A stretch of DNA of 64,000 nt, taken from the IMG/VR virus record IMGVR_UViG_2654587772_000002, one strand, 5' to 3'. This document shows positions 45,333-50,652 of the stretch, in pieces. The notes below the pieces were generated by a model. The model saw only the letters and a list, made by a program, of their open reading frames with translations, did not search any database and was not told where the DNA came from. The position numbers and the translations under genes are program-made. The DNA comes from a virus. Lineage: Duplodnaviria; Heunggongvirae; Uroviricota; Caudoviricetes. The first letter of the stretch is position 1. Each line of letters opens with the position of its first letter.

Positions 45333-45619
45333 AAATGACCTTTCTTTCTCCAGATTTCTTGTGTGCGAAAAACCCCTTCAGCATGCATCAGGCGCAATTC
45401 TTCTTTGGTGTAATCGCTGGTTTTTACCCGCCCGTCGATTAGATCGTGGCATGAGCTACAGGCTATCGCCGCCTGCATATCGTGTGGTTTTGTCGCTGTT
45501 CCGCACGTCCCCGCCAGCCTGTAATGCGCCAGCACAGAGGTTTCGGGATTGTGATTGCAGTAGCCAGGGATTCTGATCTGGCATATCTGGCCTTTAGCCG
45601 CTTTACGTAAATTCACCAT
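45329..45619 (-). CDS. Nin-region Cys-rich protein (DUF1364/YbcO-like)
   Basis: 96 aa with CxxxxxxC...CSSCH Cys/His pattern; 4-nt overlap with Q start. Confidence 0.5.
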   Translation of the reverse strand: MVNLRKAAKGQICQIRIPGYCNHNPETSVLAHYRLAGTCGTATKPHDMQAAIACSSCHDLIDGRVKTSDYTKEELRLMHAEGVFRTQEIWRKKGHL

Positions 45620-46218
45620 TACGCAAACTCCAGTAGTTGTGCGGCCACATTTTCAACTTCCTCCTGAGAGGAGAATTTACGGAACAGAATCCAGTTCCAC
45701 AGCACATTCAGTACAGATTTATAAACCTGCTGAAACTCGACTTCGTCCATATTCGCAAAAGCGATGGATTTTGCCCGACGCCCACGGCTACCGTCCGGAT
45801 AAATATGCTCGGTGTAAAATCCGGCCTGAATGGTTACCCACTCGCGGAAAGCCTCAAACGACTTTAGCAACGCCGTATCCCGGGTTCTACGAGTCGCAAC
45901 GGTGTTAAGGTATTGCTCTGCGGCATCACTCAGGGCTGGCGTGTGTTCCCGACCAACTGATTCGCACAGGTAATCAACGAAACCAGACAGCAGTTCTCGT
46001 TCGCGAGGCGTGATCGCCCCACCGACCGGAGTCCAGTAATCGAATCCCAGTTGCAGGAGTTTGAAAAAACGCTTGTGGAATGCGTAGTTACGCACACGCT
46101 TAAAATCTGCGTGTATCCACTCACCTATTTTGATTTGATGCAGAAAATCGCAACTCTCCGGCGTCGCCGGGAGAAGTAAACCAGAAGAAGTTTGTTTGAC
46201 CAGTTGTATATGCGCCAT
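45619..46218 (-). CDS. Nin-region protein (DUF1367-like)
   Basis: 199-aa ORF, 1-nt overlap with downstream gene; family assignment from memory only. Confidence 0.4.
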   Translation of the reverse strand: MAHIQLVKQTSSGLLLPATPESCDFLHQIKIGEWIHADFKRVRNYAFHKRFFKLLQLGFDYWTPVGGAITPRERELLSGFVDYLCESVGREHTPALSDAAEQYLNTVATRRTRDTALLKSFEAFREWVTIQAGFYTEHIYPDGSRGRRAKSIAFANMDEVEFQQVYKSVLNVLWNWILFRKFSSQEEVENVAAQLLEFA

Positions 46219-46636
46219 TTCTCAATCTCTCGATGGCGCAGTGCAGCAGATGCCAGTTGTTCAAGCTAGCACGCAAATTGTAAACCAGAATGCCAGGAAA
46301 AAACAAAACCCGCCGAAGCTGGTTGTGTGCGGTTGCGTTGAAGTCTCCTAGCCAAAGAGTAGCGGTGACCACTCCCCGCCGATAATCTTAGTTGTTTAAT
46401 TTCGTAAGCTAACTAGGCTAAAAGCTCTCTGTTGTCTGCCTGTTGTACAATTAACAAAATGAACAACGAACTAGATATACCAACGCCAGAATGGTGCAAC
46501 AAATCCCAAACAACACAGCAATGCAACAATAACATATGTTATTTTCCTCTCACGGGATTCAGTCCTGAATTCTCATAAAGCTAATCTTTTTTTAAAAACA
46601 TACTGTTAGATCACATGCACTTTCTTTCTTAACATC

Positions 46637-46664
46637 GTTGACTTCGCATGCGAAGCGTTTAAAA
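46637..46664 (+). promoter_or_regulatory. Sigma70-type promoter for the ATPase operon with palindrome TTCGCATGCGAA in the spacer
   Basis: TTGACT (46637-46642), 16-nt spacer, TAAAAT (46659-46664); perfect 12-bp palindrome 46642-46653. Confidence 0.45.
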
Positions 46665-46717
46665 TCAACAATTTGCACTTAAGGTATTTATTTTCCCAAA
46701 CACATAGAGAGTAAATT

Positions 46718-48109
46718 ATGACTGAGAACACGACTCCAACAGCAGACTTTAGTCCTAGTAAAAGATTTTTTGTGAGTATGCTAACTCGAGATATCGACTT
46801 AAACGATGCCATACTTGATCTGCTTGATAACTGCGTCGATGGGGCTTTACGTACAATAAAAGACACAAAAAAAACTTCAAAACCATATGAAGGATTTTAT
46901 GCGAAACTTACGATTAATAAAGATGTCTTTATTATAGAAGACAATTGCGGAGGTATCCCTAAAAGCTTCCGAGAATATGCTTTTAAAATGGGACGACCCC
47001 ATCAAAAAGAAGAAGAAAATGAAGGCACCGTTGGCGTCTATGGTATTGGTATGAAAAGAGCCATTTTTAAAATGGGTAGAGATTGCTCAATACAATCGAA
47101 TAATCCCGATGGCGCATTCACTGTAGATATAACACCTGATTGGATCGATGGTGATGGTTGGAAAATACCGATGCACGAGAGTGACTATGATAACAAAAAT
47201 CCAACAGGCACAACTATAGAGATAAAAAAACTCCATTCTAATGTGGCACAAAAATTTAATGAGAGCACATATCTTACTGATCTCTTTTTACAGATAAAAC
47301 ACTCATTGTCATTTATTATTCAAAAAGGATTTAAAATAGAATTAAATGGAGTTGTTGTTGAACATAATCCGATTAACATCATAACTGATCATTCTAAAAT
47401 AGAACCATACATATATAAAGCTAAAATAGACGATGTTGATATCGATTTAGTTGTTGGCTTCTATAAAAATTTAGAAGATGACAATGATGATGTTTTAGAA
47501 AAAAGGAGTTCTGATGATGCTGGATGGACTGTCATTTGCAATGACCGCGTTGTTCTATATTGTGATAAGACACATCTCACAGGTTGGGGCTTTGCTAATG
47601 TACCAAGGTTTCATACCCAATTTATAGCAATTTCTGGGGTTGTTCGCTTTACCAGTAAAAACCCAGAAAAATTACCAATAACAACAACGAAACGAGGTGT
47701 CGATCTTAGTTCTACATTGTACAATGATGTACGAAATAAAATGATTGAAGGGATGATGCATTTTATTCGATTCACCAATCAGTGGAAAGGTGAGCATCTT
47801 GAAGAAGGGAAAAAATTACTTAAGTCAGCTCAGTCACATGAAGCTCAATCTTTATTTGAAATTACCCCACAATCAACTCCAGAAGATAAAAAAAATAACT
47901 GGTCCAACCCTAATAGAAACAAAAATGAGTGGCGATATACACCTAAGCTGCCTACCCCAGTAAAAAAAAGCTCTACTGTACGAATAATCTTCACCAGAGA
48001 GAAAGAAGATGTTAAAATTTTATCTAAATATTTCTTTGGACATGAAGATGCTAGCGCTTCTGATGTGGGGATGCAATGCTTTGATACGGTGATTGAAGAG
48101 GTGAAGTGA
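46718..48109 (+). CDS. GHKL-family (MutL/MORC/histidine-kinase-like) ATPase with about 330-aa C-terminal domain of unknown function
   Basis: Bergerat-fold motifs: N box LLDNCVDGA, G1 box IEDNCGGIP, G2 box GVYGIGMKRAIFKMG in the first ~120 residues. Confidence 0.8.
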   Translation: MTENTTPTADFSPSKRFFVSMLTRDIDLNDAILDLLDNCVDGALRTIKDTKKTSKPYEGFYAKLTINKDVFIIEDNCGGIPKSFREYAFKMGRPHQKEEENEGTVGVYGIGMKRAIFKMGRDCSIQSNNPDGAFTVDITPDWIDGDGWKIPMHESDYDNKNPTGTTIEIKKLHSNVAQKFNESTYLTDLFLQIKHSLSFIIQKGFKIELNGVVVEHNPINIITDHSKIEPYIYKAKIDDVDIDLVVGFYKNLEDDNDDVLEKRSSDDAGWTVICNDRVVLYCDKTHLTGWGFANVPRFHTQFIAISGVVRFTSKNPEKLPITTTKRGVDLSSTLYNDVRNKMIEGMMHFIRFTNQWKGEHLEEGKKLLKSAQSHEAQSLFEITPQSTPEDKKNNWSNPNRNKNEWRYTPKLPTPVKKSSTVRIIFTREKEDVKILSKYFFGHEDASASDVGMQCFDTVIEEVK

Positions 48110-49098
48110 TGTCTGGACAATACATTCCCTATCACTTAAGGCATAATAAGTCTATTGATAGAGAGATTTTTCTCGAAAGCCTAAACCTCTTAAGCAAAAG
48201 ACTAAATATTCAAGAATATACATATATAGGTTTTGGTGGTCCGATGCTTGAAGATTTTAGAATCATGCATAATCGTATCGCTCTTTCTGATATGATTTCT
48301 CTCGAAGAACAAGAGTCTACTCACATCAGACAAAAATATAATTTGCCTTATAATTGTATTGATTGTAAGCTAATATCAGCTCATGACTTTATTCTTGATT
48401 ATAGTTTTTCTAAACCATCAATAACATGGTTAGACTATGCCTCCCCGAAAAAAATACAAACGGATCTAGATGATATACACTTACTAAGTACTAAAGTAAG
48501 CTCTTTTGATATTTTGAAGGTCACCTTCCCCATAAATCCTAGTTCTTATTACCAACGTAGAGTTGGAGAAAGTTTAGATATTTTTAAAGAAGCTTTTATT
48601 AATTCATTAAAATCATTGCTTGGGAAAAAGTATCTTGATTTTAATCTTCAGATATCAAATGCAGATCTTTCAGATCGTAAGATTAAAGCTCTTTTAATAC
48701 GAATTATTACAAACGCTTTTAGATCAGCAATAGAACGTGGTCTTTCAGGACGTAAGGATAAGATTCAGTATTACCCATTATCTTTAAATCAATATAATGA
48801 TGGCAGTCATACCATGTTGACAATATCAGGTTTTTTCTCCTCAGAACAAGAATATATAGAGTTATCTAAGGCATGCGACCTTTCTAACTGGCAATTTTAT
48901 TCAACAAATTGGGAAGACGTGCAAGAAATAGCAATACCAACACTAACAATTAAAGAAAAGATAAATTTAGATAGTAAACTGCCTGATAAAGAAGCATATC
49001 AGGCAGCCGCTGAAGAGTTCTCTTTAAACGAAAATGAACGGGATAACTATTATAAATACTATAGGTTATACCCTAACTTCCAAAGAATTATGGTTTAA
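48106..49098 (+). CDS. Unknown 330-aa protein translationally coupled to the GHKL ATPase (candidate effector/specificity subunit)
   Basis: Stop/start overlap (GTGATG) with upstream gene; AT-rich; no recognisable motif. Confidence 0.6.
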   Translation: MMSGQYIPYHLRHNKSIDREIFLESLNLLSKRLNIQEYTYIGFGGPMLEDFRIMHNRIALSDMISLEEQESTHIRQKYNLPYNCIDCKLISAHDFILDYSFSKPSITWLDYASPKKIQTDLDDIHLLSTKVSSFDILKVTFPINPSSYYQRRVGESLDIFKEAFINSLKSLLGKKYLDFNLQISNADLSDRKIKALLIRIITNAFRSAIERGLSGRKDKIQYYPLSLNQYNDGSHTMLTISGFFSSEQEYIELSKACDLSNWQFYSTNWEDVQEIAIPTLTIKEKINLDSKLPDKEAYQAAAEEFSLNENERDNYYKYYRLYPNFQRIMV

Positions 49099-50217
49099 AT
49101 ATTCGGGCTGTACTCTTTTATTTAATAAATTGTACAGCCCCTTTAATATATATTCAGCAACTATTGGTGACACGCTATTTCCTATTTGTCTGAAACTATG
49201 CCATTTAGTTACATGAAAGCGAAACCAATCAGGGAAGCCTTGTAATCTAGCAGCTTCTCTTGGTGTAATCACTCTTGGATGATAAGGGTGGATCGGCCTG
49301 ACGGCTTGAAAGCTTCCTTTATCTCTAGCGGTTCCCGCCCTTAAAGTCGGGCAAAAACCATTTGGATCTAATCTTGTAGATCTTGAAATTTTATCAGTTT
49401 CCCCAAAAGATAAGGAAGCATAACGCTCTTGGACGATTTTGCTATGTAATGTTCCGGTACATCCAGATATGATATTATTTTTTAACTTAGCGATCGATTC
49501 TGTATCACCAACATTCCGAGGGATCTGCCCCCATAATTTTTCATAAAATCCCCCTTTTCGATCTTTTTTAATTGTTCGCCAACTCTCAGAGTCTGATTGC
49601 CAATTGGCATCGATAATATCTGGTAATCCATACAAAGCATCTTTTACAGTAACCGGATCAATCATTTTAGGCATAAATACTTCATCTGAAATATCAAGCT
49701 TCAATGATTTTTTTACACCGATAAAAAAATATCTAGTTCGAATAGTTGGAGCACCATAATCAGATGCTTTTACCTTGATGGGATCAAGAATATCATAATC
49801 ACCGCTAACCAAATTAAATGCTTTATTTCTAATGCCAGAATATTTCTCTTGCATAATACCTGGAACATTTTCTGCCAAAAAGAATAATGGCTGTAATTCT
49901 GATACTAAACGGTAGAAATGCATGTAAAGCTGATTCCTGCTATCATCAGGATTCCCCTTGCCTATTGAACTAAATCCTTGGCACGGAGGACCGCCAATAA
50001 TACCATCTATGGGCATATCGTTTTTAAAAAAACCCTTAATTATTTCTGCATTTAGTAAAGAAACATCTTCTTGGACGTGCAAACTTCTTGGAAAATTAAT
50101 TGCGTGAGTATTAATAGCATGTTGATCAATTTCAACTGCCATTTTAACATCAAATCCAGCACGTGCAGCACCAAGACTTAGACCTCCAACGCCAGAAAAC
50201 AAATCTATTACATTCAT
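49066..50217 (-). CDS. DNA (cytosine-5)-methyltransferase
   Basis: Motif I DLFSGVGG, motif IV GGPPCQGFS, motif VI ENV (FLAENVPG), motif X GNSVSP; about 150-aa variable target-recognition region; convergent with partner gene, 3' ends overlap 33 nt. Confidence 0.9.
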   Translation of the reverse strand: MNVIDLFSGVGGLSLGAARAGFDVKMAVEIDQHAINTHAINFPRSLHVQEDVSLLNAEIIKGFFKNDMPIDGIIGGPPCQGFSSIGKGNPDDSRNQLYMHFYRLVSELQPLFFLAENVPGIMQEKYSGIRNKAFNLVSGDYDILDPIKVKASDYGAPTIRTRYFFIGVKKSLKLDISDEVFMPKMIDPVTVKDALYGLPDIIDANWQSDSESWRTIKKDRKGGFYEKLWGQIPRNVGDTESIAKLKNNIISGCTGTLHSKIVQERYASLSFGETDKISRSTRLDPNGFCPTLRAGTARDKGSFQAVRPIHPYHPRVITPREAARLQGFPDWFRFHVTKWHSFRQIGNSVSPIVAEYILKGLYNLLNKRVQPEYLNHNSLEVRV

Positions 50218-50479
50218 ATAGTTGCAACGTCTCTTATTAGTTTCTATGTATTATAACACAACTGTTCTTGATGTTTTAACCCCATAAGATAACCTCATAA
50301 AGGCTATCCCTTGAAAATACCGGATCGCATAAATTTAATCTTTCAAAACTACTTGTCTATTAATCGAGCAATTTAAGGTTTTTTTAGTCATGTCGATACC
50401 GACATAGTTAACTAAACCCATTTCATCGTCCAACAAATGGGGGTAATACACTTTGATTTATAGTCGGGTGGGTTTTTCT

Positions 50480-50515
50480 CTATCTGCCTTTGGTGTTCAT
50501 GCCCAAGGCAGATAG
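50480..50515. repeat. Perfect 11-bp inverted repeat with 14-nt spacer
   Basis: ctatctgcctt ... aaggcagatag in the intergenic region upstream of the methyltransferase. Confidence 0.6.
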
Positions 50516-50568
50516 CCTCAAGCACCCGCAGCAATTCTACTTAACTATCCTTTTCCCGCAAATCGTTT

Positions 50569-50652
50569 TTATCCCCAGCGGCAAATCGAATACACAACCA
50601 GCGCCACCGCCATCGCAATTCCTACCGTTGTGAATGCTTCAGTCCAGGTCAT
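50569..50652 (-). CDS. Small hydrophobic peptide (27 aa), translationally coupled (ATGA) to upstream ORF
   Basis: MTWTEAFTTVGIAMAVALVVYSICRWG: single predicted TM helix; start overlaps stop of 50649..50906. Confidence 0.35.
   Translation of the reverse strand: MTWTEAFTTVGIAMAVALVVYSICRWG

Follow-up and report, generated by a model that had tools for sequence, protein, structure and literature searches.

What do three genes do that lie together in an AT-rich island of a lambdoid prophage and that appear to encode an ATPase, a methyltransferase-like partner and a DNA methylase? The question arises from a stretch of 64,000 nucleotides of the caudoviral IMG/VR record IMGVR_UViG_2654587772_000002 (the whole of this stretch is hereafter called the window), which matches a Rac-like lambdoid prophage of E. 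coli ST2747 with 100% identity. An original prediction, made from the letters alone, had proposed the island as a candidate defence system of the restriction-modification (R-M) kind, with a MORC-like ATPase and a protective methylase, and the comparisons reported here support it as such a candidate. The three genes, called A, B and C throughout, are the following (SAM, S-adenosylmethionine):

46718-48109, plus strand: gene A, 463 aa, predicted MORC-family GHKL ATPase
48109-49098, plus strand: gene B, 329 aa, SAM-methyltransferase fold, PF20553; alternative GTG start at 48106 (330 aa)
49066-50217, minus strand: gene C, 383 aa, predicted C5-cytosine DNA methyltransferase, convergent with B

As judged from its sequence, the cassette is a real and widespread system, namely a variant of the MORC-associated R-M systems that were predicted in 2008, with the PF20553 partner as the new component. 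From our point of view, and with about half of our confidence, it can be read as a self-contained, mobile and methylation-coupled (methylation-gated) defence module that the prophage would carry as a moron. We favour a role in defence because of the linkage of A to B, the linkage and co-evolution of both with a methylase, the association with Vsr, and the R-M, DISARM and prophage contexts in which the genes are found.

The region between 46220 and 50650 holds three intact open reading frames (ORFs), namely A, B and C, and the translations and the sequence confirm the coordinates of the original prediction (for the start of B, see below), the motifs that it quoted and the convergent overlap of 33 nt between the 3' ends of B and C (49066-49098). 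The GHKL domain that it saw in A is recovered by Pfam (HATPase_c_3, E 3e-9), and the translation of A contains LLDNCVDGA, IEDNCGGIP and GVYGIGMKRAIFKMG. Across 54 homologues of A, the N box, G1, G2 and motif IV are invariant at D34xxDN38xxD41G, D75NCGG79, G106xYGIGMK113 and G164T165, respectively, with the customary catalytic Glu of the N box being replaced by the invariant Asp D34. The approximately 330 residues that had been left unassigned can now be described as an S5 transducer and a helical C-terminal domain, which results in the following approximate layout of A:

aa 25-175: GHKL domain
aa 200-330: S5 transducer
aa 333-463: helical C-terminal domain

Within the S5 domain, the basic residue K325 is invariant in the same alignment (n=54), and the segment G269-W-T-V-I-C-N-D-R277-V-V fits, as a pattern match to the quoted motif, the signature GhXhhpXXRhl that unites prokaryotic and eukaryotic MORCs (Iyer et al., 2008, PMC2292703); G269, W270, T271, C274, N275, D276, R277 and V279 are invariant in the homologues. 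The best structural matches of A are MORC3, SMCHD1 and MORC2, and MORC ranks above MutL, Topo and Hsp90. By its motif pattern and by this structural ranking, A is hence placed as a MORC-family ATPase. For the conserved helical residues 333-463, no relative was detected in Pfam scans and a PDB profile search. A ribbon-helix-helix domain in the last 45 residues (beta-alpha-alpha) was considered and dropped, as Pfam scans of 25 homologous segments and the PDB profile search returned only noise, and, among the searches with A and B, a match to the NCBIfam model MzaB (E 0.037, 12 bits) was likewise noise. Membership of A or B in the HEF_HK/Response_reg_2 GHKL systems (PMC8011034) was also rejected, since neither protein matches those Pfam families.

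For gene B, the coupling to A that had been noted stands, but the start does not: ATG 48109 rather than GTG 48106 is the most likely initiation codon, because it forms a TGATG stop/start overlap with A, agrees with the RefSeq start and corresponds to homologues that begin with MSG. The view that B carries no recognisable motif has to be abandoned, as the protein matches Pfam PF20553 (Methyltransf_35) over its full length (residues 2-329 of 330, E 2e-89, with 300 bits where 27 are required). At 50% identity, there are 2,272 clusters of B. B shows the Rossmann fold of class I SAM-methyltransferases, and motif I, motif II and a motif IV-type loop are present. Motif I (G42-F-G44-G45), the acidic E67 of motif II, D110-Y111 closing strand 4 and a basic, aromatic N-terminal segment are among the conserved features, and this conservation is in keeping with a working SAM pocket and with a catalytic loop of the amino-methyltransferase type; no test made here lends support to the "O-" in the Pfam name. 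The current labels of A and B, "ATP-binding protein" and "O-methyltransferase", are generic only. In PHROGs, A belongs to phrog_20521 and B to phrog_19983, both of unknown function, so that neither protein falls into a structural or metabolic phage family; a placement of both in such families would have counted against the original prediction.

Gene C matches PF00145 (DNA_methylase, E 3e-61) over residues 1-361, as well as TIGR00675 and the PADLOC model MTase_II (E 2e-98), and its translation contains DLFSGVGG, GGPPCQGFS, ENV and GNSV. Its residues 1-367 are essentially identical to residues 3-369 of PDB entry 3G7U, a structural-genomics structure; the next best solved relative is M.HaeIII, in the catalytic half only. 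As the original prediction had it, C is by all these matches a complete C5-cytosine methylase.

Whether the three genes belong together can be judged from their inheritance. A scan for relatives of A, in which each species was represented by a single genome (GTDB, about 100,000 genomes), found them in 352 species; the locus statistics given here refer to the best 80 loci of these relatives, at which ORFs were called and searched with hidden Markov models built from our own alignments. The 80 loci are spread over Proteobacteria, Firmicutes, Chloroflexi, Planctomycetes, Nitrospirae, cyanobacteria, several candidate phyla and one archaeon of the Methanoregulaceae. B directly follows A in 78 of them, mostly with an overlap of 4 nt, and the two genes are evidently translationally coupled almost everywhere. 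The co-occurrence with methyltransferases in other genomes, on which the original prediction hinged, was found at most loci: a C5-methylase lies within 200 bp in 61/80 and within 3 kb in 68/80, and the full triad is present in 63 of 65 viral contigs (IMG/VR). At the 61 closely linked loci the methylase is located upstream and co-directional (32), downstream and convergent as in the window (24), or downstream and co-directional (5). Three methylase arrangements around a fixed order of A then B are what M and R units of R-M systems typically show.

The methylases linked to A and B group into a single clade with a mean identity of 46%, in which the target-recognition block GxCPTLRAGT..GSxQAVRPxH is conserved. 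When pairs are compared, the divergence of these methylases correlates with that of A (r 0.53) and of B (r 0.47); A and B correlate with each other at r 0.83 (Mantel test, 0/2000 permutations). Among the 138 nearest flanking genes that were scanned, no family occurs more than four times, and a conserved extra partner can thus be dismissed; the mix comprises integrases, HNH_2, UvrD/GajB-like helicases, type I S subunits, MADS and DRT components, and housekeeping genes.

A gene for Vsr accompanies the cassette in 31 of about 75 genomic loci (about 40%) and in 8 of 65 viral ones, and is missing from the window; at some loci (for example L138 and L139) it is inserted between C and A within one operon. 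Three genomic loci encode an HhH-GPD glycosylase. The frequency of these enzymes argues for a real load of 5-methylcytosine (m5C) on the host genome. One could also imagine, although we hold this to be rather improbable, that A is a MutL-like helper of very-short-patch repair at the T:G mismatches left by deamination of C-made m5C, so that the whole would constitute a methylation and repair module. MutL stimulates Vsr in E. coli, A shares the GHKL and S5 architecture with MutL, and Vsr is the fourth conserved gene, at times within the operon as described. Repair roles for some MORCs were indeed allowed for by Iyer et al. (2008, PMC2292703). Most loci, however, lack Vsr, the invariably coupled, SAM-binding B is left without a role, A-B pairs without any C5-methylase exist in DISARM and in cyanobacteria, and a context of defence islands and prophage morons would be unexpected for a repair gene.

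This context includes other defence systems at several loci. In several unrelated metagenomic lineages (L156, L157, L158, L160, L006) the genes C-A-B are located between hsdS and hsdR of type I R-M operons; these embedded triads are often accompanied by DUF2283, a RelB-like gene and an AAA_21 ATPase. At one locus (L159) the triad adjoins a type ISP enzyme. On the Microvirga terrae plasmid pR24_2 (L155, 6001-8415), an A-B pair (A with 38% identity) is embedded in a class 1 DISARM operon, directly after the DISARM MmeI-like N6-methylase and before drmA, with no C5-methylase. A mobile setting of a different kind is provided by Pseudomonas phage PfAC20 (L154, 280-3711), a Pf-type inovirus in which A, B and a C5-methylase are arranged co-directionally at the left end; this phage also has a second short cytosine methylase.

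A second group of neighbourhoods concerns the relatives of C. Of the 80 viral homologues closest to C, 57 lie with A-B and about 11 with another GHKL protein but no B; the rest are orphan C genes with or without Vsr. The proteins of this other GHKL family have 570-630 aa, with a low-complexity linker and a helical, HEPN-like C-terminus that matches PD-Lambda-5_A models (E down to 2e-23), and are encoded as follows:

L004 10672-12498, L044 13609-15327, L206-L211, L219, L224-L226 and L230: members of the other GHKL family beside or replacing A-B, next to C-clade methylases

Two further arrangements were observed. At L153 / L221 (7965-9686), which represents a distant variant, C is followed by a 573-aa A-like protein with a C-terminal extension and then by Vsr, with no B gene. 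On S. meliloti pSymA KH46 (L161, 7926-17270), A is followed by a partial B-like ORF 3 kb downstream and by a C-clade methylase 3 kb further, a scattered locus that is probably disrupted.

The same neighbourhoods can be interpreted in terms of abortive infection (Abi), a view that we regard as somewhat unlikely. Comparable to PrrC, A would act as a guard that keeps B latent until a signal from an infecting phage (such as a disturbed methylase or neighbouring R-M system, or a shortage of SAM) releases B to methylate a cellular RNA or another essential target and thereby to arrest growth, with C being either guarded or a partner. Abi genes such as prrC sit between hsdS and hsdR of type I operons, which is the slot that the triad occupies in the lineages described above. 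The A-B pair in DISARM without a C5-methylase fits this view, as do the best structural neighbours of B, which are rRNA and tRNA methyltransferases. The pairing of C relatives (56-59% identity) with the long GHKL proteins, whose HEPN-like C-terminus resembles PD-Lambda-5_A, points in the same direction, since fusions of paraMORC and HEPN domains are proposed to be counterparts of PrrC (PMC3710099) and PD-lambda-5 has been described as a compact prophage RM+Abi system (PMC9519451). The co-evolution with one methylase clade and the linkage to Vsr, however, fit a reading based on DNA methylation better.

How the cassette is carried can be seen from its setting in the window:

about 46250-50450, strand not assigned: AT-rich cargo island (moron) between the DUF1367 gene (45619-46218, minus strand) and a sok-like/Stx-phage-like segment

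The sharp drop in composition that had drawn attention to the region is real, with a GC content of 0.31-0.38 within the island as compared to 0.46-0.52 on both flanks. The replication genes ydaV, DUF1627 and DUF977 lie on one side, and DUF1367/DUF1364/DUF1133 together with lysis genes on the other. Of 5426 complete E. coli genomes, 172 contain the entire 4.4 kb with at least 99% identity, among them strains of O157:H7, O111 and O103, so that at this identity the E. coli island is a single allele. A-B was found in 173 of the same genomes and C in 172. Among the complete E. coli genomes, only that of O157:H7 F6294 (L088, 5392-5760) has A and lacks C; in it, a deletion or replacement took C and the distal two-thirds of B, which is annotated as a partial pseudogene. 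Although this is a single event, it points the way one would expect if an intact A-B did not tolerate the loss of C.

The early-right phage operon is on the minus strand at the island, which places C in sense and A-B in antisense to early-right transcription. Both units are preceded by promoter-like sites:

46638-46665, plus strand: sigma-70-like promoter of the A-B operon, TTGACT-16-TAAAAT (10/12 in a consensus scan)
46642-46655, plus strand: 14-bp perfect palindrome CTTCGCATGCGAAG in the spacer of the A-B promoter-like site
50250-50279, minus strand: sigma-70-like promoter of gene C, TTAAAA-18-TGtTATAAT, with an extended -10 (10/12 in a consensus scan, plus TG)

The closest relative (L100) retains both hexamers (-35 and -10) of the A-B promoter. 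The palindrome CTTCGCATGCGAAG was rejected as a conserved operator or methylase site, as it is not conserved in relatives. GCATGC is also found upstream of A in two more enterobacterial loci (L053/L108 and L104), a recurrence in three upstream regions that is too weak to count. A controller (C-protein) gene was sought in the intergenic regions, which contain no plausible ORF for it.

The orientation of C along phage early transcription could also mean that A-B assist or extend DNA modification, in that they load C on DNA or in that B places a second methyl mark, and that the module shields prophage or host DNA, as a form of counter-defence, with no restriction activity of its own. The presence of two methyltransferase-fold proteins and the lack of a nuclease would suit such a role, and eukaryotic MORCs are reported to help DNA methylation to become established (PMC8277788). 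Nevertheless, we consider it quite doubtful, given that most loci are chromosomal and several reside within host type I R-M or DISARM operons rather than in phages, that a module for modification alone would not need an ATPase coupled one-to-one, and that B has no similarity to DNA methyltransferase families.

Returning to the methylation-gated defence module, we can outline how it might work. C would mark host and prophage DNA with m5C, and Vsr or the HhH-GPD glycosylase, at the many loci that have them, probably repairs m5C deamination. A complex of A and B would represent the ATP- and SAM-dependent restriction half and act on DNA without the mark: B may probe nucleic acid through base-flipping in its amino-methyltransferase-like pocket (D110-Y111, Y230), and A may dimerise on ATP as a DNA clamp. 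The terminal step could consist of entrapment or compaction of the invader, of aberrant methylation catalysed by B, or of the action of a host nuclease. As A-B would be transcribed in antisense from their own promoter and C is in sense, lytic read-through would favour methylation over restriction.

Several observations weigh against this reading. Family profile and structure searches found no nuclease family or fold in A or B, in line with the original prediction, which saw no canonical nuclease motif, and the terminal step would hence have to be non-nucleolytic or to proceed via a host nuclease. A conserved nuclease neighbour is likewise lacking, with HNH_2 accounting for 3 of the 138 flanking genes. 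The closest solved folds of B are RNA (rRNA, tRNA) and not DNA methyltransferases, and B was rejected as a relative of the DNA N6-methylases, as it shows no profile similarity to HsdM (hhalign probability 0.6%). Finally, 12 of the 80 loci carry A-B without a methylase within 10 kb. These are mostly cyanobacterial, and the pair looks stably chromosomal there, which implies that A-B is not obligatorily lethal without an adjacent C; such orphan pairs complicate a simple model of the methylase as an antidote. One could speculate that restriction proceeds without any nuclease, in that the MORC, guided by B as a reader, uses ATP to clamp and to compact or silence DNA lacking m5C, or, as a variant, that B aberrantly methylates the invader or the cell. 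We consider this more specific proposal unlikely; if it was true, the cassette would represent a prokaryotic ancestor of the methylation-linked transposon silencing by eukaryotic MORCs.

Is the cassette then a known system under another name? Prokaryotic MORCs and paraMORCs have been predicted in R-M systems together with Dcm methylases, Vsr, helicases and nucleases, and a minority of the MORC neighbourhoods has a methylase and no helicase (PMC2292703). The present cassette shares with these neighbourhoods a GHKL+S5 protein with the MORC motif, the links to a Dcm-type methylase and to Vsr, and the sporadic distribution across phyla including archaea. It differs in its partners, which are helicases and nucleases (Rad25, SNF2, HNH, RE-fold) in the former case, whereas the only invariant partner here is the PF20553 protein and both helicase and nuclease are absent. 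For the family studied here, the searchable literature shows no experimental test of the 2008 prediction. The paraMORC3/Shedu type I-D protein VcSduA has been demonstrated experimentally to be antiphage (PMC12137116) and resembles A as a GHKL ATPase in defence with a proposed role as a DNA clamp that controls an effector. However, VcSduA combines its ATPase with a fused DUF4263 PD-(D/E)xK nuclease in one polypeptide and lacks a methylase, whereas A is nuclease-free, is accompanied by B and a dedicated methylase, and has no PADLOC match to Shedu.

The linked and shuffled M and R units, the convergent 3' overlaps, the complete C5-methylase with Vsr and the mobility are reminiscent of classical type II R-M systems, but the R half consists here of an ATPase and a SAM-binding protein with no recognisable endonuclease fold (PD-(D/E)xK, HNH, GIY-YIG, PLD). 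The requirement for ATP and probably for SAM would be more like type I/III systems or BREX than like type II. BREX and DISARM also combine self-marking by a methylase with ATPases, BREX restricts without an obligatory obvious nuclease, and, as described above, a class 1 DISARM operon harbours one A-B pair. However, PglZ, BrxC, DrmA and DrmB are not present in the window, the cassette has only three genes, and neither A nor B matches a BREX or DISARM model. PD-lambda-5 and the paraMORC-HEPN proteins are similar in that a compact prophage methylase is combined with a putative Abi/ATPase effector and in that C homologues pair with PD-Lambda-5_A-like GHKL proteins, whereas A of the window lacks that C-terminal domain and any match to PD-Lambda-5, and a separate B takes the place of the fused domain.

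In line with the original prediction, which recognised no named defence system, no family of PADLOC-DB v2.0.0 (including Mza, Tiamat, Shedu, DISARM, BREX and PD-Lambda-5) matches A or B of the window at E <= 0.1, and the archaeal and Paenibacillus homologues have no match in the same version either. A literature search returned no paper on the triad, and PF20553, the RefSeq accessions and 3G7U likewise do not occur in any searchable paper. GHKL and MORC proteins do not appear in a 2025 review of host-dependent R-M systems, and the PF20553 partner is absent from the descriptions in PMC2292703, PMC3710099, PMC12137116 and PMC9519451.

At its right edge, the island borders on two further elements:

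50403-50527, minus strand: sok antitoxin-like RNA (RF01794), 50.2 bits, which is under the gathering score of 59, E 4e-9
50569-50652, minus strand: 27-aa hydrophobic ORF MTWTEAFTTVGIAMAVALVVYSICRWG, adjoining the sok-like element

The 180 bp at 50470-50650 are 91-95% identical to Stx phages and are annotated in 933W as sokW/L0139. Taken together, the sok-like match and the Stx-like stretch could be a possible remnant of a hok/sok-type locus that borders the insertion. The short ORF MTWTEAFTTVGIAMAVALVVYSICRWG could encode a small membrane toxin, or it may be meaningless. The host element itself, at about 34000-64000 of the window, is a Rac-type prophage with trkG, recE/recT, kilR, sieB, the ralR toxin, racR/ydaS/ydaT and TolA-like genes, and thus other accessory or exclusion genes.

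Overall, the question which function the island serves touches on a wider problem. In eukaryotes, MORC ATPases act together with DNA methylation to silence transposons, by a mechanism that is debated, and no experimental model was found in the literature for their proposed bacterial ancestors in R-M contexts, a prediction that dates from 2008. As a minimal version with three genes, which E. coli O157:H7 reference strains carry and whose methylase has already been crystallised, the cassette offers a tractable model. The labels "O-methyltransferase" and "ATP-binding protein" would have to be revised in hundreds of genomes. Should the cassette prove to restrict DNA of phages or plasmids, it would represent a defence family that works without a recognisable nuclease, and a direct route would be opened to the question of how a MORC reads DNA methylation.

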